Virus record (IMG/VR): IMGVR_UViG_3300045107_000078
Coordinates: 1 to 53,992 of that record
DNA length: 53,992 nt
Source of the DNA: a virus
Taxonomy: Duplodnaviria; Caudoviricetes
Reading direction: 5' to 3' (one strand)
The stretch's first letter is position 1. Every line of letters begins with the position of its first letter. Below are positions 22,037 through 42,900 of the stretch, in pieces. The notes beneath the pieces were generated by a model. It did not search any database and had not been told where the DNA came from. It saw only the letters and a program-made list of their open reading frames with translations. The translations under genes were made by a program, and so were the position numbers.

Positions 22037-23707
22037 ATGGTTGGCAATGTTGGTCGAGGAGTTACTGCCACACAAGACGACCGGAGCGCATCTACTCAAA
22101 TCCCCTTCGATAAGGGCCAAGTACCAGCAGACTTCCCCATTGCTGCATGGACCGAACAGAGTGAGCGTTACCAAGAATACCTGCGTTGGCACAGCGGCGC
22201 CGCTCTTGCTGAGAGCAAGTTCACGGACGAGAACGGCGACCCGTTGCTGAAGTACCCACTGCATGTCAATTCAGTGCGCAATTTTGCGCGTAAGCTAGGT
22301 GGCCTGCTGATGGGTGAGGCTTCGGATAGCCCGACGCCCCTGGTCAAATGCCTTGCCAAGCCCAAACAGCCATTGACCGGTGACACGCTCAGCGAGGATG
22401 ACCAGAAGCTGGCAAAGCTGGTCGAGAACGTGGTCAATGAGGTATGGAACGCTAGTTCAGGCCGCGCAATCCAGATGGAAAGCGCCATCATGTCGCAGCC
22501 ACTCGGCGGTTCTGTCTTCAAGGTTGAGTACGTCCCAAAGGACCTCGACCTGGTTATCCCGATTCGCATACGTTACATCCGGCCTGATTATTTCCTGCCG
22601 GTATGGGGCACAGACGATTGGGACCTCGAAGGCGCGTGGCTGATTTACAACATCTCGGCACAGACAGCCGCATCGGATTTCGGCGTCGATACGAAGGGCA
22701 ACAATACCGGAATCTACCTGTACGTGGAGCACTGGACGAAGAAAAGCTACACGGTCACGGTGAATGGCAAGCCGGTCATTGAGAGGATTAGGGACATCAA
22801 CCCTCTCACTGGCACAGAGCAAGTCATTGAGGTTGAGATGAAGGATGTGCCCAACATCTTCGGGTTCGTGCCTTTCGTCTACGTCCCTCGCTACCGTGAA
22901 GGGACGCGGCTGGGGCCGTCTGTCGTCGATGACATCACTGGCCTGCTGACGGAATACAACAGCCGTCTGGCAGACACCGGCGATGCGATGCTCAAGGCAG
23001 TGGACCGTCACCGGTTCATGTCCAATGTGTATATAGACCCCCAGGAGCGAGAAATCGCCCCTGGCTTAAATGTCATTGACCTGGGCCAGACCCCGCCAAT
23101 GAGCAAGGACGCACCGGCCATCAAGACCGAGGAAGCCCCTGCCCTATCGGACGCGCTGGTGAACTGGCCCAATAACATCTGGAATCAGCTGCTGCGCGAA
23201 GCCAGCCTTGGCCCCATCGCTTTCGGTGAGGATGAAGGTTCGCAGCGCAGCGCCCTGACACTCGCTTTCCGCATGTGGCCTGCCACCGTTAACACGCGCA
23301 TGCAGCGCACGTTTTGGGGCGAGGGATTCAACCGCGTGAACTGGATGATTTTGAGAATGCTCATCAAACGTCCAGTCGAGGGAATCAACATCCCTCCGGA
23401 TGTCAAGAAGCGGCTGGAGTTGGCCCCCGATTGGGCGCCTCAAATCCCGCGTGACCGTGAGCAATTGGTCAATGAGGTCACGCTGCGGCTTCAGTCCGGC
23501 TCAATGTCCTTGGAAACGGCGTTGGAACAATACGGCGACGTGCGCAATACGGACGAGGAGATCAAGCGTATCAAGGACTTTATGGAGTTCAAAGCAAGTT
23601 TACAGTCTGCTGGTCAGACTGACAAACCTGGCACCACCCTCGGCAGTGGCGCACCAACCAAAATTCAGGCCCCTGTTGCCGACAGCGGCCTCAGCGAAAA
23701 GCAGTAG
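22037..23707 (+). CDS. portal protein (SPP1 gp6-like)
   Basis: NIFGFVPFVYVP..R....G.S.VDDI..L..EYN..L, SALTL...P, SLETALE; position after TerL. Confidence 0.9.
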   Translation: MVGNVGRGVTATQDDRSASTQIPFDKGQVPADFPIAAWTEQSERYQEYLRWHSGAALAESKFTDENGDPLLKYPLHVNSVRNFARKLGGLLMGEASDSPTPLVKCLAKPKQPLTGDTLSEDDQKLAKLVENVVNEVWNASSGRAIQMESAIMSQPLGGSVFKVEYVPKDLDLVIPIRIRYIRPDYFLPVWGTDDWDLEGAWLIYNISAQTAASDFGVDTKGNNTGIYLYVEHWTKKSYTVTVNGKPVIERIRDINPLTGTEQVIEVEMKDVPNIFGFVPFVYVPRYREGTRLGPSVVDDITGLLTEYNSRLADTGDAMLKAVDRHRFMSNVYIDPQEREIAPGLNVIDLGQTPPMSKDAPAIKTEEAPALSDALVNWPNNIWNQLLREASLGPIAFGEDEGSQRSALTLAFRMWPATVNTRMQRTFWGEGFNRVNWMILRMLIKRPVEGINIPPDVKKRLELAPDWAPQIPRDREQLVNEVTLRLQSGSMSLETALEQYGDVRNTDEEIKRIKDFMEFKASLQSAGQTDKPGTTLGSGAPTKIQAPVADSGLSEKQ

Positions 23708-24474: not shown

Positions 24475-25839
24475 ATGGCTGTTGGCGATTTCGACAATTT
24501 CTACCCCATTAACCCTTGGGCTAATGTGGCGACAAACCAGCGCGACCTCTTCAATGCGGTCCTGCTGAGCGACTTCTACCGGAAGCACGTCATCTACAAC
24601 CGGTTCGTCACGACCCAAATCAATTTGGGCGACGTGCGGGCCAAGAACATGACGCTGACGAAACTCATCGCGCCGCATGCCAACTTTAACCAGACTGGCC
24701 TGCGCCAAATCTGGTTGCCGTCGAGCTACATCGACAGCGCGGCCCGCGATGTGACGTTCGCCCGTTACAGCGGCAAACTCTCGCTCAACGAGTACGACGA
24801 CATGGTGACGTACTGGCAGTCCAATGGCGCCTTCGGCCTCAAGCCGATCATCAATGGCGCAACTGGCCCGCAGATGGTCGCGGTCTTCGAGCGCGTGGCC
24901 CGCAACACCTTCCTCTCGAACTCGTTCAAGATGATGGGCGCTGGCGGCACGGCCACTGGCTTCAACCAGATCACCTCGCTGGATACCATGTCTTCGGACC
25001 TCATTGAGGACATCCACCTGGGCATGGCGGAACGCGGCGTCCCGTATGCGGACAACCTGGACGGACGGCATGGGAACATCCCCTGCATCACCACCCCAGG
25101 TATCGTCCAGACCATCCGGAAGCAGGCTGGCCCTGGCGACTGGATTGACGCCCACCGGTATGCCGACCAAGGCGCTCTCATCAATGGTCTCGTTGGCAGC
25201 TGGCGCGGTGTGGACTTCTACCAGACCAATGACGCCTGCCTGTACAACTGCGGCACGATCTACAAGCAGGTGAACATCACCGGCCAGATTCACCAGGGCG
25301 ACGGTTCGCCGGACCCGACCGTGACGCTGGTTGACAGTGTGTTCAAGGTGGGTCAGACCAGCGGCGTGACCCACTACGTCCAGACCGCAGGCTTCAGCGT
25401 GGGCGACTTCAAGGTGAACGACTACGTGACCATTCACGTTGGCCGCACCAACGCCAACGGCGTCACGAACGGTGTGGACTACACCGATGGTAAGGCGCAC
25501 AACCGCCGCATCGTCGCTGTGGACCAGCCGAACGGTCGCATTGCGCTCGACCAGCCGATTCTCGAAGACTTCACGACCGACCTGGGCAGCGGCGTCTACG
25601 GCTACGTCACCAAGGGTCGCCACATCCACACGGCCACCTTCGTTGGCGGCAGTGACGGCGTGGTGCAGGGTGTCGGTCGCCCGCCGCGTGTTCACACGCC
25701 CAAGCCGATTGACGACACCGAGAGCATCTACCGCGTGGCGTGGGATGCCTACCTGGGCTACAACCTGTTTGAGCCGGCGGTGTTCGAAGTCTTCATTGGT
25801 GCTGGCCCGAACCGCATGAAGGGGCCGACGGTCCGATAA
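24475..25839 (+). CDS. major capsid protein (N4-gp56-like HK97 fold with an inserted domain)
   Basis: Position, strong codon bias, CITTPG...IR...DW....YA..GAL.NG.VG.W.GV.F, DD......V.W..Y.G motifs. Confidence 0.88.
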   Translation: MAVGDFDNFYPINPWANVATNQRDLFNAVLLSDFYRKHVIYNRFVTTQINLGDVRAKNMTLTKLIAPHANFNQTGLRQIWLPSSYIDSAARDVTFARYSGKLSLNEYDDMVTYWQSNGAFGLKPIINGATGPQMVAVFERVARNTFLSNSFKMMGAGGTATGFNQITSLDTMSSDLIEDIHLGMAERGVPYADNLDGRHGNIPCITTPGIVQTIRKQAGPGDWIDAHRYADQGALINGLVGSWRGVDFYQTNDACLYNCGTIYKQVNITGQIHQGDGSPDPTVTLVDSVFKVGQTSGVTHYVQTAGFSVGDFKVNDYVTIHVGRTNANGVTNGVDYTDGKAHNRRIVAVDQPNGRIALDQPILEDFTTDLGSGVYGYVTKGRHIHTATFVGGSDGVVQGVGRPPRVHTPKPIDDTESIYRVAWDAYLGYNLFEPAVFEVFIGAGPNRMKGPTVR

Positions 25840-27033: not shown

Positions 27034-28125
27034 ATGCCAAACGTAGCAGTTCTATACAGCGGGAAGCCTCGCACACCTGGGGCCTGTGAAATCTACAGGG
27101 GGAACATGCCCCTGCACTTCCTGGGCAAGGCGAAGGGCTGGGGAACGCATTGGGGCTTTCTGGCCGATGCAGTAGCGATGTTCCTGGAGAACGAAGACGC
27201 GCTCGACCAGTTCTTGCACTCAACTGACCTTCTCGTGCTGCCTCGGTTCTATGTGCTCAATGAGCATCGCAAGGCAGCAGAAGGGTTTATCAACTCCATT
27301 CGGGCTTTCGGAATCCATGTCGTTTACGAGGTGGACGACGATTACACGAATGAGCATAAGAAGGTCATTGAGGGTGATGCAATCTCAGTGGCGGGATTAG
27401 CCGACGCGGTGACAGTGACGACGCCGTATCTGGCGGAGACCATGCACAAGCGTACTGGCCTGCCAACCTATGTGCTGCCCAACATGCTGGACCCACAGCT
27501 GTGGCGAAATGGCACCATCACCAGAAAAGCTGGGCCGGACATGACCATCATTGGTCTGACCGGTTCCTTTACGCACTATGAAGACTGGAAGGTTCTCAAG
27601 GACGTTCTCCCAGCGGTGCTGGAGAAGCACCCGAACTCCCGCCTGGTGGTCGCAGGCTTCACGCCAGACTACCTCGAAGGACTGCCGCAGACCGAGTATT
27701 TCGCAGGGTTCGCCTACCCCGCGTACTCACAGTTCATCCGCCAGTGCGACATCATCCTGGCGCCGGTTGACCCCGCCGATGGCTTCAATATGGGGAAGTC
27801 CCCTATCAAGGCCGTCGAGGGAATGGGCGCTACGCGCTTGGTCGAGAACCGGTTCGCTGGCGCTGCGGTTGTGGCGACTGACAACCCCATTTACAGGCTG
27901 GCGGTCCGCAATGAGCAGAATGGGCTGCTGGTGGAATACACGCCAGACGCTTGGTTCAATGCTCTGGACCGGCTGCTGACCGACCATGAGTACCGACATC
28001 GGTTGCAGTTCGCGGCCCATCGGTCAGCCTGGAAGGATTGGGACATCAGCCGCCACTGGACAAAGTGGGCGAAAGCCTATCGTGACATTTTGAAATTGCC
28101 CATTCGGACTAAGGAGATAGCATAA
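27034..28125 (+). CDS. GT-B (GT4-like) glycosyltransferase
   Basis: VVYEVDDD, ADAVTVTTPYLA, VLPN, IG.TGS.TH..D, DI.LAP, FN.GKS.IK..E, NGLLV. Confidence 0.88.
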   Translation: MPNVAVLYSGKPRTPGACEIYRGNMPLHFLGKAKGWGTHWGFLADAVAMFLENEDALDQFLHSTDLLVLPRFYVLNEHRKAAEGFINSIRAFGIHVVYEVDDDYTNEHKKVIEGDAISVAGLADAVTVTTPYLAETMHKRTGLPTYVLPNMLDPQLWRNGTITRKAGPDMTIIGLTGSFTHYEDWKVLKDVLPAVLEKHPNSRLVVAGFTPDYLEGLPQTEYFAGFAYPAYSQFIRQCDIILAPVDPADGFNMGKSPIKAVEGMGATRLVENRFAGAAVVATDNPIYRLAVRNEQNGLLVEYTPDAWFNALDRLLTDHEYRHRLQFAAHRSAWKDWDISRHWTKWAKAYRDILKLPIRTKEIA

Positions 28126-28126: not shown

Positions 28127-29224
28127 ATGACAGTTTCCGCGATGGGGGGTAGTGTTGGTATCTCCCCGCAGGGTTCTGGCAAAATCGGTTCTGGCGCGTT
28201 CAACCCCGCCAGTTTCAGCAATTGGCAGCGTTTTCTGGCGACGGACATTGACATCAGCCCGCGTGAGCAGATGCAGCCGCTCCCGCCGGAGGTGGGCAGT
28301 GACCTGACGCCACGCGACATGTACAAGACCATCGTGTTCGCCGCCGGCCAGGTGGACTTTATGCCTCGTGCGGACGGCATGTTCGGTCTGCTGGCCTACG
28401 CGCTGATGGGCCAGGTGTCGTCTGTGACCGGCAAGGACATGGACGGCAACACGGTCGCGGGTGTGAACACCCATCTGTTCTCGTTCAATCAGGGAGAGCG
28501 GCTGCCCTGGTTCTCGATGCGCAAGTACGTCCCTGGCGCGAATCCGCTGGCGGAATACGCGGGCGACTGCATCATGCAGAATCTGCGCATCGTCGTGCCG
28601 GCCACCGGCAAAATGCAGATGACGGCCAGCTTCCTGGGGCGTCTGCCGCTGGAAGACCCGACCGTTCCGAATCCGGACAATCTGGCGTGGGCGAACACCT
28701 ACAACCCCAGCGGCACCATTCCGGAATCGTGCTCGGCCACCATCTCGCTCGGTGCCGACGCGCCCAAAGTGCTGTCATGCACCATGAACATCTCGAATGG
28801 CACGACCCAGGCCGCGCAGGAAGCCATCGTTGGTTCCTACTACCTCGATGACATCATCGCGCTCCAGCGCTCGGTCTCCATCCAGGTGGTGGTGAAGTGG
28901 GAATCGCCCGACCTGTACCTCAAGGCTTTCGGCGGCGCGTCCAATGCGACCTCGTGGACGCCGAACCCGTACAAGACCAGCGGCGTTGGCCCGAATTGGG
29001 GCTTCAAGCTGATCGGCAAGGCGCCCTCGGTCATTGCCTCTGGTCGCAACTACGCCTTCGGTCTGCGGGCGCAGGATGTGGTCTGGTCTGCTGATGGCGG
29101 GCCGCAGCTTCAGGCTGGTAACATCGTGACCCAGCGCTTCAATGGCCTGGTCATCACCCCAGCGAGTGGCGTTTACGCCCAACTGCTGCTTCAGAACGCG
29201 ACTGCTGCCTACGCCTGGGCGTAA
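28127..29224 (+). CDS. major tail tube protein
   Basis: Beta-rich, strong codon bias, precedes chaperones and TMP; G.LAYALMG, THLF, MNISNG patterns. Confidence 0.8.
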   Translation: MTVSAMGGSVGISPQGSGKIGSGAFNPASFSNWQRFLATDIDISPREQMQPLPPEVGSDLTPRDMYKTIVFAAGQVDFMPRADGMFGLLAYALMGQVSSVTGKDMDGNTVAGVNTHLFSFNQGERLPWFSMRKYVPGANPLAEYAGDCIMQNLRIVVPATGKMQMTASFLGRLPLEDPTVPNPDNLAWANTYNPSGTIPESCSATISLGADAPKVLSCTMNISNGTTQAAQEAIVGSYYLDDIIALQRSVSIQVVVKWESPDLYLKAFGGASNATSWTPNPYKTSGVGPNWGFKLIGKAPSVIASGRNYAFGLRAQDVVWSADGGPQLQAGNIVTQRFNGLVITPASGVYAQLLLQNATAAYAWA

Positions 29225-29322: not shown

Positions 29323-29751
29323 ATGAAGGTAACTTCCAAGCCCACCATGCAGGAATTCGAACTGACGACCGACCCTGATGGTGTGGCGAAAGTCGTGATT
29401 AAGCAGGCTACGTTCGCGCAGACTCGCTTTCGCAATGAACTGCTGTCCAAGCGCCGGTACATCACCGAGGACGAGATTGGCGGCAGGAGCGCGATGGAGC
29501 AGGACTGGAACGCCAGCGATGTGATGGCCCGCGACATCTTCCTTACCCTGGCTGATGCCAGCGGCTTCCCTGTCGATGACGGCGAAGAATTGTTCAAGTT
29601 CCGTGAAGGCAAAAACGGCTTGGGCGTACTGGACATGAATGAAATCACGTTCGGCGTAAAGCTGGGCCTGCTGCCCGATGAAGTCGTGGAAGAAATCCAC
29701 GATTGCGTCCTGCGCGTCAACCCTCAATGGGGCGCCGCTAAGGGGGAATAG
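29323..29751 (+). CDS. tail assembly chaperone (gpG-like)
   Basis: Between tail tube and TMP; ends in a slippery sequence. Confidence 0.8.
   Translation: MKVTSKPTMQEFELTTDPDGVAKVVIKQATFAQTRFRNELLSKRRYITEDEIGGRSAMEQDWNASDVMARDIFLTLADASGFPVDDGEELFKFREGKNGLGVLDMNEITFGVKLGLLPDEVVEEIHDCVLRVNPQWGAAKGE
29742..29748 (+). other. programmed -1 frameshift site G GGG GAA
   Basis: AAG GGG GAA TAG; the -1 frame is open from 29742 into ORF 29781..30089. Confidence 0.8.
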
Positions 29752-30089
29752 ACAGCCACCTCACCAACCTCAGAAACCATGTGGTGTGGTGGCTTGAGTT
29801 CGAGGCAGCAAGGGGCGGGAACGAACTGGAACATGAGGCGTTCCTTGCCCTCGCCATCGAAGCGGGATTCTATGAGCAACCGCCGCAACCCGAACCCCTC
29901 AGTCTATTGTACGAGTTGCGGCGCTTCGGCCTGACGTATTGGGAGGGAGCTTATGTAGACCAGCCAGAAATACTCATGTGGGAACTCAATACCTGCATTG
30001 ATGCGGAAGTCGAGGTTCGTAATCGACAGGTCGCTCAACTGAAAGCGCAGGAGGAGTTCCTACAGTCCTTGAAGAAGGGGGACGGATGA
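29742..30089 (+). CDS. tail chaperone frameshift extension (gpGT-like)
   Basis: In the -1 frame of the chaperone, no clear RBS of its own; EGAYVDQP resembles the G..DQP motif of gpT-like segments. Confidence 0.75.
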   Translation, partial: GGIDSHLTNLRNHVVWWLEFEAARGGNELEHEAFLALAIEAGFYEQPPQPEPLSLLYELRRFGLTYWEGAYVDQPEILMWELNTCIDAEVEVRNRQVAQLKAQEEFLQSLKKGDG

Positions 30090-30316
30090 ACGAGATACAG
30101 CGGGCGCGACGGAATGCGCATCTGGCCGCGAACGCAAACAATCCCAAGGCCCTGGCCGAACTCTACGAGGCGGAAAAGCGACACAGCGATGCAAGCTGGG
30201 CGCGAACCAGGGCACAGAATGAAGAGAAGAACCGCTTACCGTCCCCCGACCCTTCCTGTGTAGGGCGCGGGATTGTTGCATTACAGGCCCTGAAGGAGTT
30301 TGATTATGGCGAATAG
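30086..30316 (+). CDS. small hypothetical protein
   Basis: ATGA coupling upstream; overlaps the TMP start. Confidence 0.5.
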   Translation: MNEIQRARRNAHLAANANNPKALAELYEAEKRHSDASWARTRAQNEEKNRLPSPDPSCVGRGIVALQALKEFDYGE

Positions 30317-33300
30317 CTATGACTTCTCCTCCTTCAAGGGCGTTGGTGTCAAGCGGAATGCGCAACTCAATGAGGCATTCCAGCAGGCAGGTATCGACCC
30401 GACCGATCTGCACGGCATCGCCCCCACTGATTCGGCCTTTCAGCAAGTCGCCCAGCGTCTCGACAACCCCCAGCTGCGCAGCCTGTACTGGAACAACGTA
30501 GTCCCGAACCTGAGCCGCAACATTCCAATGGGTGGCACAGAGTACGTGGCGAAAGTCATGCCGCAGGTGCAGCCGCCGATGGGGACGCCGAACCTCCCCT
30601 CTCCGACCGGTGATGACCGGTTCCGGCCACTGGTCGCACATCCGCTCAATCGCCTGAACATGCCAGATGCGGAATCGCCCCTGCTAGGCACATGGGAGCG
30701 GCACAACCAGCGGCTGTTCAATAACGTGCCGGTCATGCAGCGCGACCGGTTCCTCAACCCCTCACTGCAAACGCCCGTGGATGCGCCAGTACAGCAGAAG
30801 GATGCGACGTGGCGCAATCAGTTTCAGGATACGCTGGGAAGCGTTGAGGGCCTGACCTACAAGCACGAGGGCGATGGCGTCTTCCGTGTGCAGGCCAACG
30901 GGCGCGAGGCGCTGGTACGGGCGTCTTCGGGGACCGGTATGATTGGCGTCAGCAACACCGATTCGCGTGGCGGCTGGGCGGTCATTCCTCACGTCTTCGA
31001 CCCTGAGAAGCGCGGCATTACGTCCAATATGGACACGCTGCGCAGCACCCTCTCCTCGTGGGCCAGTCAGGATGAAGGTGAACGCGGGCGCTCCCTCTTC
31101 AACATGGCAACCAAGCGCGGCGGCTTCTATATGTCGAATGACGATCTGCGCAGCATCGTCAATGAGACCCAGGCCGCGACCAGCGTATACCTCGGCAAGG
31201 TGCCGCAGGGCCAGATGTCGTCGAAGGTGTATGAGGAACGCCTGGCGGCAGTCCGCCAGCTGCCTGGTTACGAAGACGCTGATAAGTTCGGCGGGGGCAA
31301 TTACGCTTTCTCGCAGAACGCGGTGTACGGCGCGGCTTACATGACCAATGAGCAAGGCGCATACGCCACTGAGAAGGCGAAGATGCTCCGTGCGTCGGGG
31401 CGCGGCCACCTCGGAACACCGATGATGGGCATTGGCCTGCCGATGCAGGAAATCTCGGCGCCGTTCGCCACTGAGCGACAGGCGCGAGGTCTCACTGGCT
31501 ACGTCGCTATGAAGACGGCGGACGTGCTGGGCGACCTCCCGCAGACAACCGGCATTGCCTACACCAGCATTCCGATGGTGGGCAAATCGCATGAATACGA
31601 GATTACGGCAGAACAGGCCAAAGGCTTGTCTGTCGGTGACATCTTCATGCGCAAGGATGCCAACATCCCAGCGGTCGCTGAGGGGTATGGCAACCGGCGC
31701 GGGACGGGCGAGTTCAAGGACATCTTCGGCAAGCTGCCGTCTGGCGCTGCGCACAGCATTGAGGACATCCAGCAGCTGGAGAACGGCAATTACCGTGTCA
31801 GTGTCATGTCCTACCAGAATCAGTTCTCGCTGAAGCACTACACCAAGACCAGTGCGGTCCAGATGGATTCGGCAGATATGCCCGCCGGTTCGCAGGTCTG
31901 GTCTGTGATGGAATCGCCTGCCCGCGTTGCTGCTGAAGCACAGGCGATGATTGCGGCCACCTACCCTACCCGCGCATCGTTCCAAAGTTGGCTGATGGCG
32001 AATGCCACTGCCTCAATGGGTGGCGATGCTGCCCAGCAGTTCGTCCAGCAGAACTACGTGGATGGTCGTCTGACGCCGGCGCTGGAGCCGATGGTGACGC
32101 AGTGGGCGACACAGGAATTCTATGACGGGATGCAGCTGGCCGAACGTCAGAACCGGCCAGTCTCCACTGAGCACATGAACGCGCTCATGGGGCTGGCGCG
32201 GGAAGGCCAGTCCGGACTGTCGTTTGAAGGCGACGAGACGCCAGAGAATCTGCGCCTCAGCTTCAAGGGCCAGACGGTGCCGTTGTTCGAGGGACTGCGC
32301 CAGAACGAAGGTGGCGACGGTTACATGGCGGATGTGTTCCGCACCCCATCGCGTACCTACCAGACACTCATCAACCCACGCCCGGAGGGACGCCGCGACA
32401 CGATGAACGTCTCGGCTGAGAAGCTGGACCTCATCCGGACAGCGAACCCTGGCCTGTATCAGGCGCTCACTGCCCAGGATGCGGCTGGTCTGCTGTCGCC
32501 CAATCCGGCGCGTCACGCGATGCTGTCGTATCTGGCGAACAGTTCGGACGAATCCCGCGCCAAGCTGGAAGCCTCCAACGGCATTGCCCGCTTCAGTGGC
32601 GAAGACCTCGCTGCGGCTCGGCAGGCGGTGACAGAAGCTGGCGTTGACCCTGAGAACAAGGCCGCGTTCAACAAAGCGGTCATGCAGCATCTCGGCAAAC
32701 AGTACATGCAGGATGGGAAGCGGCAGGCGCTGGAAGTGCAGATTGGCGACCAGTCGTATGTGCTGCCCAATCCGGCCACCTTCGCCAACACCATACAGGC
32801 CACCAAGAATGGCGGTATGTCCGGCGGTCCAGGCGGCGCGATGCTCAATCTCCTCAATGCAGCCAGCGATTATCAGCTGGAAGGCACTGAGAAGGCGGCA
32901 GAGAACGCGCAGAAAATCGCTGGCCGTGCGATGGAGAAGTTTGGCGATTACATGAATAAGCCCGGCGTCAAGCAGGCGGCGAAGGGCATGATACTGCCGA
33001 AGTATGGTGGCCTGACGCAGACGGTCGAAGGTTTCGGTCTCAATGAGGCCATCGCCTCCATCAAGGACCTCACCCGCCAGACTGGTATGAGCGAGGACGA
33101 AATCCGCGAACTCCAGAAGCAAGGCAAGCTGGCCGTCGCGTTCTCGCACGAACCGACCATCAACAGTGAGTGGCAGAACAACCTCAATCTGCGCGTCGGC
33201 TCCTTCGTCGAGGACTTGGTGAAGGCCAATGACCCTCGCGCCGCAGCATTGAAGAACCTGCGCGGCGGGATTGCGGTATCCACTGAGGCGAATCAGCTCA

Positions 33301-36300
33301 TGGTGTCCGACACGGACGCTGACCAGTACAATGCGTTCATCAACTACCGGAAGGACAAGAAGACCGGTCAACTGGTGGGTGCCGATCTGGACATCACCTC
33401 GCCTGACGAGATTCTGCGGCGGGCGCGACTGCAACCTGGCTCGGAAATGCTCAAGTTGCAGGGCGACATCGGCAAACGCGCTGCGGTTCTCCCTGCCCTG
33501 GCCGGTGAGCAGATGGATTCTGAGGCCATCAACAAGACCATCAAGTACCTCAGTGGGGCTGACATCTCGGCGCAGAACGAGGCGGAGCGGCTTGGCAAGG
33601 CGTCGGCGGGTCCGGCTTACAACCAGCTGAACCGCTACCTCGGCAACATCGCACGGCGCGTGTCGGGCAGTCTATTCGGTGAAGCCTCGCCGCAGCAGAA
33701 GATGGTCTCCGAAGCTGCGCAGTTGGTGGCCGGCACCGGCTATCAGGCGGGCGTAGACTACGAGAATGCCGACCCGCATCTCCAGAACCTCATCAAGGCC
33801 AGTCAGTCGTTCGTCATGTCGTCGAAGTACGGCGACAAGCCGTTTACTTTCGGCGTGGATGAGAATGGCAATGACGTAAAGCGGAAGTTCGAGAGCCGCG
33901 ACGACGCGCTGGGCTATCTGCACAATGAACTGGTGAACGTGCAGGGCATTGATACGGAAGGGAATTGGGGCGAGAAGTTCGGGCGGTTTGCCACACGTCT
34001 GATGATGCCCTATAACGCGCTGGGGAATCAGGAACTCGAAGACAAGGCACTCGATGTCGTTCAACGCGCACACACGGCGGGCGGGTTCGACAAGGACACT
34101 GCCGCAGAGTTCCAAGGTCTGTTCGGGGCGAAGTCGTGGACGGACATTGCGCGTGGTGCAGCCGCCGGAGAGCAGGAAGGCGACCTCTCGAAAACCAGTG
34201 CGTTCATGTCCATGATGATGGGCGCTTCTGGCCTGACACAGGAGAAGCAGGGAACGGCGGCGACGTGGGGCTTACAGGGAAAGCTCAGTGGCTTTGCGCG
34301 GCAGTCGAAGGAGTTCTTTAACAGCTTCGCCAGCAAGCGCAACAGAGACCAGACGATGGGCGCGGCATTGAGAGCAGCGGAAACGCACAATCTCGGCGGC
34401 TCGGCCCAGCGCCTGCTGGATATGTACGGCTCTCAGGCACTGCCACCCAGCCCAGCAGAACAGCTTACATCGAGGGTGCAGGAACTCGAAAGCCGACCGC
34501 TGGAGCAGTTATCTGACAACGAACGGCAGGAACTGTTCAGCGCCTACGAGAACCTGTCCGAGGCTGGTCGAAACAATATGCAGTCTGCGGACGCCGGCGG
34601 CGCTGGCATGGGCGGCGGCGATCTGCCTCCAGCGGCACCTGGCATGATGCCGGTTGACGATGGCGGCGAAGGTTCGGGCGGTGGTCAGGGCAATTCCAGA
34701 ACCGGTTCTGAAGGTGGCGGGACAGTTCACAACCATTTCTCCAAGTTCCCGCTCGGTGAACTCACCAGCGATGACGTGCGCTCGGCCAAGCAGTACCAGA
34801 ATCTGCTGTCGCGGTACGCTGCGGCCAGTCCGGATGAGCGCAAGCTGTTCAATTCGCGGGAGATTATCCGTGCTCACCGAACCCTTGAGGGCGTGGTGGG
34901 CAAAGGACAGCGCTGGATGCGCGAACTCGGCAAGGGCACTGATATGGTCGCGCCGAAGGGCTTTGGCGACTTCATGGAGACGTTCGGCAAGGACGGCGGC
35001 GCGGGTGTTGACTCCCTGCTGGAGCAGACCAAAGGCGACGTGGGCGCACTACGCGATGAGCAAATCATGGCGCGGGCGACCGGCACTGGCAGCACGAAGA
35101 ACCGCACTGTCACCAGCCGCGAGGCAGACCAGGCCATTGGGACGCTCAATTCCTTCATGGAGAAGATTGGCAGCGGCGCCGAAGACCTGCAAAAGTGGGT
35201 CGATGGGCTGGGCGACCTGAGCAAGCTGACCGACGAACACACCAAGCAGGTGAAGCAGCTGGTCACTGAGTACCCGAAGATGATCTCGACCTTCGATAAG
35301 GCGCTCAAAATCGCTGAGGCGCAGGGTGAGGCTAACGTCGATGTCAATACGGGCCGTGTTCTGGCGAAGCAGCCGGAACTGGAGCAGATGAAGGGCTGGA
35401 CCGGCTCCGAAGGTTTCCAGAAGCTGGTTCAGGCTCTCGATGCGAACGTCCGGAACAGCAGCGTTGAGGGCGCGTTCGACACCGGCGGGAAGTATGACCT
35501 GTCTGGCATGTCGAAGATGGGCATTCTCACGGCGATGGGCAAGCAGGGCCGCGAGATGCGCGAACAGGCGCGGGGCGAGGGTGTTCTCAGTGATGGTTTG
35601 ATGGGTAAGGCTGAGGGCGCGGCGGGCTTTGCAGGCCGTCTCACGCAGTCCTTCTTTGACCCAGGAACGCTGTGGGGTCTTCGTGCGCTACAGGGGCAAT
35701 TTATCAGCCCTGTGGTCCGCGCAGCGAAGGAGTACCAGAATCAGGCCGCGACCATTGACCTGATGGGCTTGCAGTCGGGACAAATCAGCTACGACAGCCT
35801 CATGAATGGTCAGTACGGCCAGATTATGCGCCGCGAGAATGGACTGCGCAGCGCCCGCATTGCGATGGGCCAGCAGGCAGATTCCGCGTGGGGCGGCATT
35901 CTCGATGCTACGCTGGGTCGTGAAGCTGGACAGGGCATTGGCGGCACGCTGGCGGCAGTCGGTATGCCAGCCGTTGGCATTGGTCTCGCTGCCTCTCGCC
36001 TGCTGAAGAATGCAGACGTGGCGAACTCTGGTTCGTGGGGCGCGGGTATTGGTCTCGGCGTGGCGGCGGCGGGGATGCTCGGCTACTCCCTGAGCAACGC
36101 CAACAACTACCAGGCCATCGGTGACTTTATGGGCCAGGGCGCGGGTCTGAACCGGTTGCTCTCCAATCCGGCGGGCGCGTTCGGTCTGTACGGCGCGGGC
36201 CTGAAGGCAATGTTCGGTCAATACTCGGCTGAAGACACGGCCAAGCTGCAAGGTGGCACGTTCTTTAACGCTGCTGTCGCGGCAGCTGCCAACGGCGAGA

Positions 36301-39300
36301 ACATGACCGACCTGTACCAGAACATGCAGTACACCGGCGACGTGACGATGGGGCCGATCAAGACCGGCCAGATTAGTGGCACGGTCGCCAGCTTCGGCTT
36401 CTCGCCAGATGAGTTCCGTTCGGCTGTCACCTCTCAATGGATTAAGAACCAATCCTCGGCACTGGCAATCAGTGAGGAGCAGGCCAGCCAACTCTTCGGC
36501 ACACTGGCACAGTATGGTGGGCAGTTCGACCAGAACGGCTTTATGCAGATGCCGTCTGCGCAGCGGGCGCGGCAGCTGATGGAAGCGCAACTCAAGGGCG
36601 CCGATGTGGGCGGCATGGTTCAGAACTACATCCGTGCCAACGGCCAGAATCAGATGGACCGGTCTGCCACCGGCTTCGCGCTGGGGCAAATCCTCGACCA
36701 GACAACCGGCATGAACCCTGAGCAGTTGGGTCGTGCGGGCTGGGGTTTGGGCGCGGCAGCGGACCTCAACACAGTCCGGAGCCGATTCAACATGAGCAGG
36801 CTGGGGACGGACTACACGGATAAGTTCTTCCAGACCCCACAGACGATGGACTACATCACAAATGAGTACACACCTTGGGTAGGCCAGCGCATGACCAGTT
36901 CGCCACTCGCCAGCGAGGACGATCTGCTAAACACCTACGTGAAGCAGGCAGGCGAGGCTGGGCAGTTCGTGATCGCGGACCAGCTGAAGAACTCGAAGGA
37001 CGCCTCCTACTCTCTCGCTGGCCGTCTGGTCGCGCAGTACGGTGCTGGCAATGTAAACACCAAGCGCGTGGTAAGCCAGCTGCAATCCATCGTGCCCAGC
37101 ATGGTTCTCAGTGGCGCGGGCGATTATGTCACGCCGGTGCAGGACTTCCTCTCGCAGGGGACAACGCTGGGCGATAAGAGCATCGGGCAGTTGAACATGC
37201 TCTCGTCGAACGCGACCCAGCTGTATTCACGTGGTGTGGACCTGAGCCAACTGGCCCAGCAGAACGTCGCAGCCAGTGGGCAGGCGCAGACCTTCGACAA
37301 CTTCGTGAAGGCGGTTGATAAGTTGACTGGCGCTCTCGGCAAAGAAGGCGCGGTACAGGACATCGAGTACCAGTCACTGGCTGCACCCATGCGCGAGAGC
37401 CTGAACCTGTCCCGCATGATGGTGGGGCGTCAGGGCGTCAGTGAGGACGATCTCGGCACCAACAAGCTGCTGGCCGACCCCATCAAGGGGCGTCAGTACC
37501 TGGCGGTCGATGCAACCCGTAATAGCATCCAGTTCAACCCGATCAGCGCCTATACCGGCAACTTCTTCAATGGCCTGCAATCTCTCATTGAGAATGGTCA
37601 GGGTGGCGAAGCGGTGAGGCAGTCGCAGGCGTTCGACCAGTTCTCTGGCATGACGACCAACTACATGGCCTACGGCATGTCCGCTCCACAGGCAGCGATG
37701 GCCGCGACCCAGGCAGCAGCCCTACCCCAGGTCCAGCAGATTCAGCTGCAAAAGGCCGCGTCGGGCGACCGGATGATGCTGTCCTATCTGGCCTCTCAGG
37801 GCAAGATCGACTCGAAGTACCAGACCATCGACATGAACACTGGCATGCCGATGGGCTACGACAACATGAGCCGTGCGCAGTACAACCAGATTGCTGACAA
37901 CCTCAAGGGCACGTCCTTTGAGAAGTACATGCCTTCTTACGAGACGGCACAGAACGGTATCTACGGCATACAGGACCAGATTTATCAGGTCCAGCAGCAG
38001 GCCGCAGCCGCCAGCTACTACTACGGGCACATGGGGCGCGAACTCGGAATGGCCTCGCAGTTGGGCGGCGGGACGCTCGACGAACACGGCTTCGTGCAAG
38101 GCGGGGACAATCTCGCTGGATGGGCAAGCTGGGCGAAGAAGGCTGGCATCAAGAATCCGAATGTCGGCAACGGCATGAGCTACTGGCAAATTCAGGACGC
38201 TCAGGACAAGATGCAGATTGAGCAGCAGAATTTCAACATCCAGCAGGGCAACCAGAACATGGCCCTGCAATGGGAGCAGTTCAACCTCAACAACCAGCAG
38301 TGGAACGAGAACTACGACCTCAGTAAAAGGCAGTTCGCGTTCAACACCAGCAATGCCCGCTGGCAGATGGGATTCCAGCGGCAGGAGCAAGTTACCCAAC
38401 AGCAGTGGCAGCGAGAGGACTTCGCGTTCAACCGGAGCCAGAGCCAGCTGCACTTTGGCTGGCAGATGGAAGACTTCGACCGGAACGCGGCCTTTGCGCG
38501 TGGTCGTGAACGGCTCGACCTCGAACGGCAGCGTGAACGGGCAACCATTGACTACTCGATGCAGCAGTCGCGCCAAGACACGCAGGAGAAGCGGTTCGAA
38601 CAACAGGTGAAGTGGGCGGACGAACTGTACAAGAAGAATAAGGACAAGTTCGAACAGGAGACGAAGTTCCAGCAGGAAAGCCTCGATCTGCAAAAGAAGC
38701 ATCACGACGAGGATATGGCATTGCAGGCAAAGCGGCTGGGCATGTCCGAAGAGGCGCACCAGAAGCAGGTTCAGTGGATACAGGAGGAGCAGAAGCTCAA
38801 TGAGCAGAAGCGAATCCTCGACCGGCAGGGCGCGATTGCCAATAACAACATTTCTGAACGTGCAGCAGCGGCGGCAGCGGCAGCAGCGAAGAAGGTGGCG
38901 GAACTCGGCAAGAACGTGGACGCGCTCCAGCAGGGCGTTGACCGGACCAATAAGAGCATTGATCTCAATGTGGCGAAGGGTCGCGTGTTCGAGGATGTCA
39001 TTAATGGCATGGGCGGGTCGTTCGATAAGGTGGGCGGCGCATTCAAGACGATGGGCGAGAGCCTGGGGCCAGTTGCTACCAACACCTCAGTGCTCAATTC
39101 CCAAATCCCGATCTACAGCAATAACCTGCTGACACTGAGCCAGAGTTTGCAGCGGTTCTTTACTAACCTGCAAAACTACGTGAATAGTCTCAAGCCGCCT
39201 GGTTCGAATGGCACCACATCTGGCGGCACGTCTTCTCCAACGCAGGGCATCAAGACCAGCGGCGACAGCGCGATTGGCTACAGTGCCTCTCGACTCGATG

Positions 39301-39464
39301 TTCGGAATGACGGTTACTCGCAGCAGTTCGCGCAGATGATTGACCTGCTGCAACTGATTGCCGACCGCGTGAAGACGCCATCGAACGTGACGGTTATAAC
39401 AAATCAACCTGTCGGTGGGATATTGTCTGACGTGGATAAATCTTATGGTATAATGTCAACGTAA
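30306..39464 (+). CDS. tape measure protein fused to an N-terminal putative two-barrel (DPBB) virion RNA polymerase
   Basis: TMP position; C-terminal half has Gly/Ala TM-like segments and a Gln-rich coiled coil; N-terminal part has K-x3-K...DMP, HEPTI, SDTDADQ, GK..G..YN and Q.GVD motifs; AAGGAG RBS before ATG 30306. Confidence 0.8.
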   Translation: MANSYDFSSFKGVGVKRNAQLNEAFQQAGIDPTDLHGIAPTDSAFQQVAQRLDNPQLRSLYWNNVVPNLSRNIPMGGTEYVAKVMPQVQPPMGTPNLPSPTGDDRFRPLVAHPLNRLNMPDAESPLLGTWERHNQRLFNNVPVMQRDRFLNPSLQTPVDAPVQQKDATWRNQFQDTLGSVEGLTYKHEGDGVFRVQANGREALVRASSGTGMIGVSNTDSRGGWAVIPHVFDPEKRGITSNMDTLRSTLSSWASQDEGERGRSLFNMATKRGGFYMSNDDLRSIVNETQAATSVYLGKVPQGQMSSKVYEERLAAVRQLPGYEDADKFGGGNYAFSQNAVYGAAYMTNEQGAYATEKAKMLRASGRGHLGTPMMGIGLPMQEISAPFATERQARGLTGYVAMKTADVLGDLPQTTGIAYTSIPMVGKSHEYEITAEQAKGLSVGDIFMRKDANIPAVAEGYGNRRGTGEFKDIFGKLPSGAAHSIEDIQQLENGNYRVSVMSYQNQFSLKHYTKTSAVQMDSADMPAGSQVWSVMESPARVAAEAQAMIAATYPTRASFQSWLMANATASMGGDAAQQFVQQNYVDGRLTPALEPMVTQWATQEFYDGMQLAERQNRPVSTEHMNALMGLAREGQSGLSFEGDETPENLRLSFKGQTVPLFEGLRQNEGGDGYMADVFRTPSRTYQTLINPRPEGRRDTMNVSAEKLDLIRTANPGLYQALTAQDAAGLLSPNPARHAMLSYLANSSDESRAKLEASNGIARFSGEDLAAARQAVTEAGVDPENKAAFNKAVMQHLGKQYMQDGKRQALEVQIGDQSYVLPNPATFANTIQATKNGGMSGGPGGAMLNLLNAASDYQLEGTEKAAENAQKIAGRAMEKFGDYMNKPGVKQAAKGMILPKYGGLTQTVEGFGLNEAIASIKDLTRQTGMSEDEIRELQKQGKLAVAFSHEPTINSEWQNNLNLRVGSFVEDLVKANDPRAAALKNLRGGIAVSTEANQLMVSDTDADQYNAFINYRKDKKTGQLVGADLDITSPDEILRRARLQPGSEMLKLQGDIGKRAAVLPALAGEQMDSEAINKTIKYLSGADISAQNEAERLGKASAGPAYNQLNRYLGNIARRVSGSLFGEASPQQKMVSEAAQLVAGTGYQAGVDYENADPHLQNLIKASQSFVMSSKYGDKPFTFGVDENGNDVKRKFESRDDALGYLHNELVNVQGIDTEGNWGEKFGRFATRLMMPYNALGNQELEDKALDVVQRAHTAGGFDKDTAAEFQGLFGAKSWTDIARGAAAGEQEGDLSKTSAFMSMMMGASGLTQEKQGTAATWGLQGKLSGFARQSKEFFNSFASKRNRDQTMGAALRAAETHNLGGSAQRLLDMYGSQALPPSPAEQLTSRVQELESRPLEQLSDNERQELFSAYENLSEAGRNNMQSADAGGAGMGGGDLPPAAPGMMPVDDGGEGSGGGQGNSRTGSEGGGTVHNHFSKFPLGELTSDDVRSAKQYQNLLSRYAAASPDERKLFNSREIIRAHRTLEGVVGKGQRWMRELGKGTDMVAPKGFGDFMETFGKDGGAGVDSLLEQTKGDVGALRDEQIMARATGTGSTKNRTVTSREADQAIGTLNSFMEKIGSGAEDLQKWVDGLGDLSKLTDEHTKQVKQLVTEYPKMISTFDKALKIAEAQGEANVDVNTGRVLAKQPELEQMKGWTGSEGFQKLVQALDANVRNSSVEGAFDTGGKYDLSGMSKMGILTAMGKQGREMREQARGEGVLSDGLMGKAEGAAGFAGRLTQSFFDPGTLWGLRALQGQFISPVVRAAKEYQNQAATIDLMGLQSGQISYDSLMNGQYGQIMRRENGLRSARIAMGQQADSAWGGILDATLGREAGQGIGGTLAAVGMPAVGIGLAASRLLKNADVANSGSWGAGIGLGVAAAGMLGYSLSNANNYQAIGDFMGQGAGLNRLLSNPAGAFGLYGAGLKAMFGQYSAEDTAKLQGGTFFNAAVAAAANGENMTDLYQNMQYTGDVTMGPIKTGQISGTVASFGFSPDEFRSAVTSQWIKNQSSALAISEEQASQLFGTLAQYGGQFDQNGFMQMPSAQRARQLMEAQLKGADVGGMVQNYIRANGQNQMDRSATGFALGQILDQTTGMNPEQLGRAGWGLGAAADLNTVRSRFNMSRLGTDYTDKFFQTPQTMDYITNEYTPWVGQRMTSSPLASEDDLLNTYVKQAGEAGQFVIADQLKNSKDASYSLAGRLVAQYGAGNVNTKRVVSQLQSIVPSMVLSGAGDYVTPVQDFLSQGTTLGDKSIGQLNMLSSNATQLYSRGVDLSQLAQQNVAASGQAQTFDNFVKAVDKLTGALGKEGAVQDIEYQSLAAPMRESLNLSRMMVGRQGVSEDDLGTNKLLADPIKGRQYLAVDATRNSIQFNPISAYTGNFFNGLQSLIENGQGGEAVRQSQAFDQFSGMTTNYMAYGMSAPQAAMAATQAAALPQVQQIQLQKAASGDRMMLSYLASQGKIDSKYQTIDMNTGMPMGYDNMSRAQYNQIADNLKGTSFEKYMPSYETAQNGIYGIQDQIYQVQQQAAAASYYYGHMGRELGMASQLGGGTLDEHGFVQGGDNLAGWASWAKKAGIKNPNVGNGMSYWQIQDAQDKMQIEQQNFNIQQGNQNMALQWEQFNLNNQQWNENYDLSKRQFAFNTSNARWQMGFQRQEQVTQQQWQREDFAFNRSQSQLHFGWQMEDFDRNAAFARGRERLDLERQRERATIDYSMQQSRQDTQEKRFEQQVKWADELYKKNKDKFEQETKFQQESLDLQKKHHDEDMALQAKRLGMSEEAHQKQVQWIQEEQKLNEQKRILDRQGAIANNNISERAAAAAAAAAKKVAELGKNVDALQQGVDRTNKSIDLNVAKGRVFEDVINGMGGSFDKVGGAFKTMGESLGPVATNTSVLNSQIPIYSNNLLTLSQSLQRFFTNLQNYVNSLKPPGSNGTTSGGTSSPTQGIKTSGDSAIGYSASRLDVRNDGYSQQFAQMIDLLQLIADRVKTPSNVTVITNQPVGGILSDVDKSYGIMST

Positions 39465-39479: not shown

Positions 39480-39920
39480 GTGGCAACTCAAAACCACATT
39501 CACTTGAGCACAACCATCGGAGGGGCGCCTGAGAACGCCCCTTCCCTTAAATGGACCACTGTTGACCGTGACAAGATCAATAGTGTAATCATTTCCCCGA
39601 AACGCTCCCTCAGTGGCAAGCTGTATACCCATGTCCTAGAGTCTGCTGGCAACCCCATCGTATTCAAGGACATGGCCTATATTCTGGTCGTGAAAGCGGA
39701 GCAGTCCTACACACTCGACCAGCGCGAGGCGCAGCTGTTAGCGATGCTGGGCCGCACGGTCTACCTCGTCGATCACAACCATCCGGCAGACAACGCTGAC
39801 CACACGGCCTACCGCCGGACCATGCTGTTCGACCAGATGGGCGAGATGAAGAAGTTTGACCCCGCCCTATCCCGTTATTACGTGTCCATCCATCTGACGG
39901 ATAACGACACCGTACCCTAA
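39480..39920 (+). CDS. putative distal tail (Dit-like) protein
   Basis: First gene after TMP; 146 aa; RSLSGKL motif. Confidence 0.55.
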   Translation: MATQNHIHLSTTIGGAPENAPSLKWTTVDRDKINSVIISPKRSLSGKLYTHVLESAGNPIVFKDMAYILVVKAEQSYTLDQREAQLLAMLGRTVYLVDHNHPADNADHTAYRRTMLFDQMGEMKKFDPALSRYYVSIHLTDNDTVP

Positions 39921-39930
39921 AGGAGAACTG

Positions 39931-42900
39931 ATGATTTCCCAAGCTGAATGCGGCCTGAGCCTGACTGACTATAACAATCTCAAAGCCGCTGTCACCAATC
40001 CTGTATGGAATGTTGTTGCCCACCGCACCAATCCCGATTTTGCCTTATGGCTTACCTCCCCCAATACAGCCGACAACGACACGGCGACCGATTGGGATGT
40101 TGTGCAGCTGTCAGGCTATCTTTTCCGTGCTCCAACGCCTTCAGCATTAGAGCGCATTGATCTTGCAGCAGGAACAATCACTACGCTGGCCGGTTATTCA
40201 GCCCTCGCAAACGCCTATAAAGTTCGGCTTGGCGTATCCGGCAGCACGTTGTATGTATTTGCCCAAAAGTCAACAGATGAAACAATCTGGACGTGCAATA
40301 GTGCCGATAATGGCGCCAGCTTCTCAGCATGGACAAACACTGGCAATGGCGGTACGACCAGTGCGTTTTCGCAGATAACTCCATCGGGTGGTACAGCACT
40401 AGCCTCTAGTGCAGCCAGTGGATTCCCAGCGTCCAACGCTTTCGATACGGACACGGCAAGCGGATGGAAGCCAACTGCTGCATCGCCGCAATATGTTCAA
40501 TACACCTTCGCGGCTGACGTGCTAATTCAATATGCCTATATCCTGGCGGACAATCTTCGCGCCGGCGGCACCATCACTGTGATTGGCCTCACGGCTGCCA
40601 ATGTTGCCACTACGCTTCTGACTTACACAGTCGCCAATGATAACTATGGCAATGGGAAGTGGTCGCCTTTTATTGATTTCTCGTCGAACACCAACCTCTA
40701 TCGCTCTTACCGTTTCCAGTTTGCGGGTTACAGCACCGGTCTGAATGTTTCACTGATTCAGCTGTATTCAAACAAGACGGTAAAAGCGGTCAATGACTTT
40801 GTTGCCAATGGCAGCAGCTTAATCCGCGCCACGCCAACCGTGCTCGATGGCGCCAGTGTCAATCTCCAGAATGAGGGCCTAAATCCGCACTACCCTGTCG
40901 TATCAATTGCCTTTGTCCCTCTATCCAATGGCAACCTCTATGTTGTGGAGGGCGAACAACCAGGCAACTCAACCGTTGTGGTGGATGGGACAACAACCAC
41001 ACAAAAAACCTACGTGGCTTCTGGAATCTACTCTTACCTGGGACCAGGCCGTAGGCACAGCATTGACCACGTTGAGCCTATTGATATGGTTGACCACTCA
41101 GACAGCTTTTTATTCAGGAAAAATGTCAGAACATCGGTGGTGAACAGCAAGGTTTATGTAACAGCCTACACATCCGATGGTTCTACCGATTATCCTGTCA
41201 CTGGATACAAGGTTTATACCTATGAGCAGAACCAGTTCTGGAGCGCAGGAACATTCCTGCCGCTGCCTTCTGGTTACGGCACTTCTGGTGTGAGGCTTTT
41301 CCAGACAGGTGAGTATGTGTATGCAGTCCAGAGAGGGCTCGTTTATCGCTCCCCATCAACGCGCTTCTTTGGTTATTCTGCTGCCGCCTATCAGACTGAC
41401 ATTAGCAGTTATATTGACGGCATGGAGATGAACCATGACCAGAACTATCAGATTGGCCTTATCCTCCACAATGCCGATGGCACTTTCAATAACCACAGCA
41501 TCCTCAATAAGGCTAACACAGTGTCGCTGGTCCTCCAGCATGGCTATAACATTGGCGGAGTGCCGGTGCTAATTCAGACAGGCATTGCCGAAGTAGATAG
41601 CTACGATTGGCAATATGACCTTCCTACCCAAATGCTGCGGCTGACTGCTCAGGGATATATGGTGAAGGTGGCAGATCGGTTCCGCAGCGAAGATGCTATT
41701 GTTCGGAATACCATGATGGTAGGAATGGACGATTTCGCTGGCGGCTCATCGCAGTACGGGGGGCTGGGCCATGTCGAAATTCTGTCTGGCACATGGGTAA
41801 CAGCCAGCAATCTTCTCACTGCCACGACTGTCAAAAATGGAACAACACTGGCCTTCAATACCTGGCTCAATAACTGTGCAAATGGCGTGGTCGAGTGGAC
41901 CATGACACCTAGTTCAGCATTTCCGACTGCGCAGTTTTCCCAAGGCGCCGGTATTGTGTTCCGTGCTATAGACGATAAGAACTACTACTATGTTCTGATT
42001 GTGCGGAACGCTGGCGCATACTACTGTTCTGTTTGGCGCGTCATCAATGGGGTGCAAACGCTTCTCACTTTCTCATCGTCGTTCCCAGGTGGTGCAACAC
42101 AGACGGACAGTTTCCGTTTAATCTTCTCTGGCAACAACATCCAGATTATCACTCAGCCCGCCAGCGGAACCGCTGCTATCATCTTTAGTTATCAAGAGCC
42201 GCTTGCTGTGTCAGCTGTGCCTCCATACAAGCGTGAGTTCTCGTTGCTGCCACCGCAGCGGGGTTTTGTTGGGTACATCACACGTCTGACAACTGCAAGC
42301 GTGGCCTCGGTCAGCTTCTCCAACGTGCGTTGCTACAATCTCGATTCGATACCAGAGAGCATTGAGAGCGTGAGTAATCGGCTCTTTGGATTGGCGCAAG
42401 TTAAGGCTGAGATTGACGATTTCGGGTTCCTCAGTGGCAGCTGGGCTGATACCAACCTCGCCAGCAAATCCATTGTTGGTTCATCAATCACGGTTACAGG
42501 AAGCGGTTCTCTGTTCGGAAAAACTATCCGGACTGACTTCACGCCGCCGTCAGGGTCTTGGCGACTGGATTTCGAAAGCACTGGTTATCCTGCTTTCGTG
42601 ATGAACCTCAATGGCGGCGGACGACTGGATATTCGCCCATCCGGATGGTCATACGCCCCAGGGGACGTAATTTCCAACAGTTCATACTCCATGTACGACA
42701 CTATCTCGAACACGAATGCGAACAAACGCTATTCAGTTGTCTTCATGGAGGTGCCAGTTGGTAGCAGTGATGCGGGGTCTGATAACTGGTATGTACTAGC
42801 ATTTTTCGCGCAGAATATCTTAACTGGATTCTACGCTGAACGAAAAAGCGCCAACATGCTATTGACATCACAAATTGGCTTTGGTGTCTACGGCGCCGCC

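Follow-up and report, generated by a model that had tools for sequence, protein, structure and literature searches.

Tail tape measure proteins fused to an RNA polymerase are known from phages of Thermus. In phage P23-45, the tape measure protein gp96 carries such a virion RNA polymerase, which is active (PDB 8H2M/8H2N), and the same kind of protein occurs in P74-26, G20c, and TSP4; the authors of the gp96 report call the fusion a previously unsuspected association and describe gp96, like other divergent viral members, as having no matches to curated family models (PMC10770324). The literature searched gave no tape-measure-fused polymerase from phages other than those of Thermus; some may be listed in Supplementary Data 3 and 4 of that report. 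The virion RNA polymerase gp66 (PDB 6VR4) of phi14:2, a crAss-like phage, carries the motif DFDID, each Asp of which is needed for activity according to the preprint (bioRxiv 10.1101/2020.03.07.982082). In this work, an uncultured phage represented by the IMG/VR virus record IMGVR_UViG_3300045107_000078 was analysed over its whole length of 53,992 bp (hereafter the window; linear by class, with a CheckV completeness of 66%). Its tape-measure position is occupied by a giant open reading frame (ORF) on the + strand (30306–39464, 3052 amino acids plus stop), which consists of a polymerase-like half, a Gly-rich linker, and a tape-measure half. We consider it probable that this ORF encodes a tape-measure-fused virion RNA polymerase that is unrelated in sequence to the known ones. 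The residues from about 380 to 1200 would form a highly diverged single-chain polymerase of the two-barrel type of cellular RNA polymerases, in which the β′-like barrel would bear the metal triad Asp1002/1004/1006 and the β-like part would probably give Lys510 and Lys514. Past the linker, residues from about 1470 to 3052 would be the tail tape measure, which has a membrane hairpin and, in its C-terminal part, a conserved module. YonO of SPbeta and QDE-1 are also single chains with the β-like part before the β′-like part; neither is fused to a tail protein, and none of the searches made here matched them.

The single frame, the conserved triad, and the tape-measure position are direct observations. 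The ORF can start at TTG 30300 or ATG 30306, from which the 3052 residues are counted, and its product is identical to a database protein (P0002) present on two contigs. The preliminary description, which was made from the sequence of the window alone, had placed a 3052-residue ORF in the tape-measure slot and quoted a number of polymerase-like strings in it, all of which were confirmed in the sequence. On the + strand, these are GLTGYVAM (31488–31511), Lys510 (31833) and Lys514 (31845) within RVSVMSYQNQFSLKHYTKTS (loop 31833–31847), KPGVKQAAKG (32958), VAFSHEPTI (33135–33161, with His948 at 33147), DTDAD (33309–33323, i.e. Asp1002, Asp1004, and Asp1006, the presumed Mg-binding triad), GKASAGPAYN (33594), and YQAGVDYE (33741), followed by a Gly/Pro-rich linker between the two halves (residues 1431–1472, 34596–34721). 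DTDAD is the sole DxDxD of the protein, with 0.53 expected from its composition, and no other large real ORF in the window carries such a motif. A single DxDxD is near the chance expectation, so the motif alone proves nothing, and it is its conservation that lifts it above chance.

With residues 250–1449 as the query, a full HMMER scan across 1.84 billion representative proteins gave five relatives, all of 2583–4304 residues, with E values from 5.6e-47 to 5.4e-19 and 25–30% identity. Together with a 2785-residue frame on a viral contig (L004) and two proteins from a profile search (P0008 and P0009), this rare family has nine members. A word-indexed protein search with residues 1–1450 returned the protein itself only, and a single-protein scan of viral contigs gave no match. 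An alignment of the query part against the full-length relatives stretched both query ends and was discarded. An aligned DxDxD is present in all nine members, as DFDAD in five of them and once each as DTDAD, DFDVD, DFDFD, and DNDGD, and the fourth motif residue is accordingly Ala in six (the query and the five with DFDAD) and Val, Phe, or Gly in one each. Asp1002, Asp1004, and Asp1006 are invariant in the full-length relatives (6/6) and in alignments of seven (7/7) and 24 rows (24/24). The three Asp are therefore kept in every homologue found, a point that the preliminary description had named as a check of its polymerase assignment. Pro950 of the HEP string is invariant in the same alignments, including the 24-row one. 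Other columns invariant in the full-length alignment (6/6) include Gly901, Gly902, Lys510, Lys1098, Gly1102, Gln1147, and Asp1151; Lys510 is also invariant in 7/7, and Lys514 aligns with a Lys one residue off in part of the family. The HEP and DTDAD strings had been regarded as unusual, which does not hold for this family: relatives have RYP, GYP, or MWP and DFDAD, DFDVD, DFDFD, or DNDGD, so both strings fall within its ordinary variation.

The conservation extends to more distant proteins. The 24-row alignment of the polymerase region comprises eight family rows and 16 distant giant tape-measure proteins (it includes P0004 and omits L048 and P0008), and its sole invariant columns are Pro950 and the three Asp, while Ser992, Gly416, and Gly927 are kept in at least 90% of the rows. 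The position of His948 is occupied by Arg in 18 of the 25 rows of a local alignment, which lacks P0004 and includes the doubtful L048. The giant-protein alignments have the order R/H-x-P, about 50 residues, S, and then G-D-x-D-x-D, which is collinear with the NRxP...NADFDGD pattern of β′ subunits; in the query, the place of the Arg of the NRxP motif is taken by His948. When the 7-row family profile was compared by hhalign with the first 1600 residues of 13 distant giants, the probability was 63–87% for eight rows (five distinct sequences) and 0.1–9% for five. This profile comparison is suggestive of a link between the family and the distant giant ORFs.

The fold of the catalytic region was approached with two AlphaFold models. 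The β′-like catalytic barrel would span residues from about 895 to 1025 (32988–33380, + strand) and contains YGG...GLNEA (33003–33050), His948-Glu-Pro950 (33147–33155), Ser992, and DTDAD. Model 2, built from 24 sequences, has a mean predicted local distance difference test (pLDDT) value of 67.4 and a predicted template modelling score (pTM) of 0.54; residues 528–1048 lie at 80–94 and the β′-like barrel, loops excepted, at 80–93. In this model, the Asp triad loop follows a short helix and precedes a strand, as in β′ structures. Foldseek of model 2 against the PDB gave 569 matches at E <= 10, three of them at E <= 1e-3. All 50 matches listed of the 569 are RNA polymerase entries (E 4.5e-4 to 8e-3), the best being the non-virion RNA polymerase of phage AR9 (7s00_d, E 4.5e-4, probability 1.00), and the others listed include bacterial RNA polymerase chains of 1140–1497 residues and the non-virion RNA polymerase of PhiKZ (7OGP chain A). 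The β′ identity of the matched chains was read from chain length and naming convention. With a model at pLDDT 80–94 and RNA polymerase entries only among the PDB matches listed, a β′-like catalytic barrel is supported at the level of a predicted structure, and the catalytic region is predicted to have an RNA-polymerase-like fold. The β′-like barrel put forward in the preliminary description is thus supported, with an invariant triad and listed PDB matches to RNA polymerases alone. The fold modelling that it had proposed as a check gave, for this barrel, good local confidence and RNA polymerase large-subunit structures, with nothing else among the 50 listed.

A number of results weigh against a polymerase and have to be set beside this agreement. 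Pfam and PHROG scans of the giant protein returned no families, and neither PF00623 (RNA_pol_Rpb1_2) nor PF00562 (Rpb2_6) gave anything on the record at E <= 10. A phmmer search of the PDB gave no hits, and PDB profile searches gave only low-complexity or designed-protein matches above E 1e-3. In hhalign, the family profiles reached a probability of 0.1–0.3% against residues 1–1200 of gp96 and found nothing against ORF65 of phage MaMV-DC. The fold evidence is of moderate strength. The template modelling (TM) scores of the Foldseek matches are low, at 0.10–0.13 on the query and 0.23–0.27 on short targets, which is usual when the match is at the level of a domain and the proteins are large, and the root-mean-square deviations are 7.5–30 Å; the matches listed (50 of 569) do not include gp96, QDE-1, or gp66. 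Model 2 depends on 24 sequences only, and model 1, built from seven sequences with a mean pLDDT of 57.9, reached E <= 1e-3 with none of its PDB matches, of which poxvirus Rpo132 (6rid_B, E 0.09) was listed first and human RPB1 (E 0.3) third. Model 1 was too poor for PDB matching and was used only for the viral structure library. Within the sequence, the Glu of the PEGQ motif of the family is replaced by Gln in the query protein, and the Lys510/Lys514 loop with most of residues 410–520 is modelled at pLDDT below 50 in both models (about 31–33 for the stretch with the Lys pair in model 2). DxDxD-type loops also bind calcium in unrelated folds. The protein might be no polymerase at all but an oversized tape measure with a structural or ejection domain, in which the conserved Asp loop would bind a metal; the fold matches would then be owed to a model built on a shallow alignment. 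The uniformly negative searches for polymerase families, the low TM-scores, and the lack of a significant PDB match for model 1 fit that explanation, which we nevertheless regard as quite unlikely, because a spurious model would not be expected to give 50 RNA polymerases among 50 PDB matches listed, the matched region has a pLDDT of 80–94, the motif order is collinear with the β′ barrel pattern, and the best match in the viral library bears a canonical NEGDADGDQ.

That match came from a comparison of model 1 with the viral structure library, in which the second half of MaMV-DC ORF65 ranked best (E 1.1e-8, 668 columns), followed by protein A0A172Q021 of Acinetobacter phage vB_AbaM_ME3 at E 4.5e-6 over 616 columns. 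ORF65 carries IQRTPMG and NPLLWQAANEGDADGDQ, a near-canonical β′ motif, and from its sequence it looks like an unannotated single-chain RNA polymerase. It is a ‘hypothetical protein’ of 1677 residues from a cultured cyanophage (KF356199 49224–54257; L022:2225–7258, – strand), with an HExxH-like HELVHH near the N-terminus, and Pfam finds nothing in it. Both proteins are annotated as uncharacterised, stand alone in contractile-tailed phages, have about half the length of the giant protein, and show no similarity to the family in hhalign; no paper calling MaMV-DC ORF65 or the ME3 protein a polymerase was found in the literature.

The candidate β-like barrel, residues from about 380 to 532 (31443–31900, + strand), contains GLTGYVAM and the Lys510/Lys514 loop. 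No β-subunit match was significant, the best being 6rid_B at E 0.09 in the PDB and sheeppox Rpo132 at E 0.14 in the viral library, both for model 1, and an ESM Atlas look-up of residues 380–600 gave no usable match. Since this barrel is modelled at pLDDT below 50, it is not confirmed, and the motif equations given for it in the preliminary description are thus conjecture; a second barrel would be present in the protein if the two-barrel reading is right. Between the candidate barrels lies a helical and β-hairpin region, residues from about 528 to 894 (31887–32987, + strand), with a pLDDT of about 77–94 in model 2. It includes the family motif NPRPEGRRDTMNV (32373–32411, + strand) and the columns Pro693, Glu694, Asn714, Ala744, and Asn745, invariant in 6/6. 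This region may connect the barrels in the manner of a clamp, or it may be inserted in the first of them; NPRPEGRRDTMNV is a candidate counterpart of the NP...PSRMN motif of β subunits. Past the β′-like barrel, GKASAGPAYN and YQAGVDYE are conserved helical motifs (33594–33764, + strand) with Lys1098, Gly1102, and Asn1106 in the first and Gln1147 and Asp1151 in the second; among the 25 rows, Gly1102 is kept in 20, Asn1106 in 19, and Asp1151 in 19. Long helices are modelled at model residues 776–816 and 821–843 with a pLDDT of 40–76 (model 2). The two motifs could be the candidate region of the bridge helix and trigger loop. Extra enzymatic inserts seem to occur in or near the linker of relatives. 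One relative (P0007) has an insert of about 190 residues between the two candidate barrels that contains HEFSH, an HExxH-like string seen by eye, and one of the six full-length relatives matches phrog_1706 (‘CRISPR/Cas system associated’) at 1.8e-4.

The second half of the protein has the features of a tape measure. Its gene lies between the tube gene with the small ORFs and the distal tail genes, and it has a Gly/Ala hairpin. A hydropathy scan shows this membrane hairpin as two Gly/Ala-rich hydrophobic segments, residues 1876–1901 and 1911–1930 (35931–36095, + strand), and the hydrophobic segment is conserved in the relatives. A long Gln-rich region follows, and then a charged C-terminal part that is probably coiled. 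Among the PHROGs, one of six relatives matches the tape-measure family phrog_1506 (1.3e-6) and one of six phrog_21845 (7.7e-6); the query protein matches none. The most conserved C-terminal motif, FGWQMEDFDRNAAFARGRE, is invariant from Phe2717 to Gly2733 (38454–38510, + strand) and is followed by a Gln/Glu/Lys/Arg-rich stretch; it is the most conserved part of the whole protein. Scans with FGWQMEDFDRNAAFARGRE gave 18 viral, 44 metagenome, and 5 genome loci, which yield 27 distinct open frames of at least 1800 residues. At least one [G/R/K]DxDxD occurs in 22 of these 27 giant ORFs, with 2.0 occurrences expected in total from 300 shuffles per protein, and in 20 of the 27 a single motif of this kind stands in the same frame 1254–2256 residues upstream of the C-terminal FGWQMED...ARG motif. 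Since the 27 ORFs are related, these counts measure conservation and not independent events; two of them (L005 and L007) seem to be one protein, and the family member L004 is included. The sole match to the polymerase hidden Markov model of the family among the 44 metagenome loci is again the L004 contig. The C-terminal module also occurs alone, with no N-terminal part, in ORFs of 1287 and 1445 residues (L002 and L010), so that the tape measure is complete without the polymerase half, which behaves as an addition to it.

In our view, there is an even chance that the giant ORFs belong to a large, old, and hitherto undescribed superfamily, whose members would have a DxDxD polymerase module joined to the front of one kind of tape-measure module. 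It would mean that tail-borne injection of a polymerase is common in environmental siphoviruses and not an oddity of Thermus phages, possibly with transcription-coupled DNA entry, and that the branch of the query has gained a folded clamp-like insert but no second polymerase. Four of the five genome loci with the C-terminal motif lie in metagenome-assembled genomes of Chloroflexota (Anaerolineales twice, Chloroflexia, and Anaerolinea), two of these on contigs of 286–325 kb. As a giant fused ORF is absent from all five, this is a host hint only, and the hosts may be Chloroflexota.

The fusion itself, which the preliminary description had claimed as apparent, is borne out: the polymerase-like half and the tape-measure half share a single frame, and the same architecture is found in nine of nine family members. 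The linker contains one perfect copy (34698–34709, codons Arg-Thr-Gly-Ser) of a phage palindrome, AGAACCGGTTCT, that is mostly intergenic, and the copy could be an old gene-boundary relic or an internal regulatory site. Taken with the separate shorter proteins in L002 and L010, such a copy is what an assembly or frameshift artefact that joined separate polymerase and tape measure genes might leave. We hold an artefact to be extremely improbable, as the nine fused members come from separate records (2583–4304 residues), the Asp motif and the C-terminal motif share one frame in 20 of the 27 giant ORFs, and the GC content at third codon positions is 0.75, uniform along the ORF and matching that of other real genes. 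In the window, AGAACCGGTTCT has 27 sites at no more than one mismatch (273–53762), 17 of them perfect, against 0.12 expected; several copies stand just 5′ of gene starts, e.g. at 39467, 29250, 24397, and 22013, and it occurs in none of the 65 other loci compared.

Like gp96, the giant protein combines in one ORF an N-terminal polymerase-like module with a tape measure and has membrane segments further on, a single DxDxD, and no sequence similarity to known polymerases beyond this motif. It is shorter (3052 against 5002 residues), its motif is DTDAD at residue 1002 and not DFDGD at residue 779, and no metallopeptidase domain was found in it by Pfam, unlike gp96. About 370 well-folded residues stand between the Lys loop and the catalytic barrel, a domain arrangement that is unreliable at a pTM of 0.54, whereas the connector of gp96 is short and disordered and a clamp is lacking (PMC10770324). 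The preliminary description had likened the protein to P23-45 gp96, and kinship between the two could not be detected by tblastn or hhalign. Both halves gave no match by megablast or tblastn against 50,697 phage records, gp96 included, while residues 1–1200 of gp96 as the query found 10 Thermus phage records only. With the multisubunit β′ chain, AR9 7S00 chain d, and PhiKZ 7OGP chain A, which are the best structural matches listed, the triad loop is common; in contrast to multisubunit β′, the protein consists of one chain that continues into a tail protein, it is not scored by the Pfam β′ and β models, and the fourth motif residue is Ala and not Gly. The likeness to gp66 lies in the giant size, in a core of two barrels (the β-like one being a candidate here), and in a fourth motif residue other than Gly; presence in the virion would be our assumption for the phage studied here. 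Unlike the giant protein, gp66 is a podovirus-type ejection protein and not a tape measure, and it is absent from the PDB matches listed.

By analogy with gp96, the fusion protein would be assembled into the tail and would exit at infection. The tape-measure half would then aid a channel through the envelope, and the polymerase half, at the cytoplasmic end, would transcribe the first genes of the incoming DNA without the host polymerase. We infer packaging, injection, RNA synthesis, and the choice of the genes read from this analogy. The two-barrel fold with an active metal site might also have another job, such as a genome-pulling transcription motor, a polymerase that makes primers or copies RNA, or a PolD-like DNA polymerase. 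Cellular enzymes have Asn two residues before the first Asp, and this position is not conserved in the family, so either sugar may be chosen, which counts against the virion RNA polymerase and leaves room for such a job. In the same direction, neither a second polymerase nor a phage promoter was identified in the record, which is 66% complete. The fold and the triad are common to the RNA-dependent QDE-1 and the DNA-synthesising PolD, as stated in the gp96 report (PMC10770324). On the other side, the PDB matches listed (50 of 569) are all DNA-dependent RNA polymerases, and the only tape-measure fusion studied transcribes pre-early genes according to the same report (PMC10770324), so we consider another job unlikely. 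Because no other large ORF in the window carries DxDxD, there is no second polymerase like gp64 of P23-45 in the sequenced part of the genome, and if the giant protein is a virion RNA polymerase that reads the first genes, the later genes would need the host enzyme or the same polymerase.

If a tape-measure-fused virion RNA polymerase is encoded here, the layout would exist in a second family with no sequence relation to the first, and the design would then be recurrent or ancient. The family sits in an ordinary 54-kb siphovirus of a lineage that does not look thermophilic, and the protein would offer a smaller object for the study of polymerase passage through the tail tube, of the start on entering DNA, and of the coupling between entry and transcription. 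Many giant tail proteins called ‘hypothetical’, together with MaMV-DC ORF65, would also be flagged as likely polymerases.

The remaining genes place the giant ORF in a tail module. Rightward genes follow in the usual order from 18.5 kb to about 50 kb, with the large terminase (18547–20274), an SPP1-type portal (22037–23707), the major head protein (24475–25839), a GT4-type glycosyltransferase (27034–28125; Pfam Glyco_trans_1_4, 4.7e-12), the tail tube gene (28127–29224; Pfam Phage_tube_2 2.2e-6, phrog_290 8.8e-15), and two small ORFs in the chaperone position (29323–29751 and 29781–30089) whose order is syntenic in L004, all on the + strand. The giant ORF is followed by a 146-residue ORF and a 1180-residue tail protein (39480–43473, + strand; a weak phrog_17517 tail-protein match, E 0.0064). 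The viral contig L004 has an identical gene order, with the capsid 36% and the tube protein 34% identical. The terminase gave no match by megablast or tblastn against the 50,697 phage records, and among the window ORFs scanned neither a DNA polymerase nor an integrase was seen. The slot of the glycosyltransferase, past the head/neck genes and before the tail tube gene, holds a 360-residue ORF in L004. The right arm (50649–53912, – strand) encodes a ParM-like partition protein (51492–52655; phrog_691, 3.5e-20) and an RNA ligase/tail-fibre attachment catalyst (52740–53912; phrog_562, 1.4e-60), and a topoisomerase-like protein is encoded at 8648–10141 (phrog_6247, 8.4e-33).

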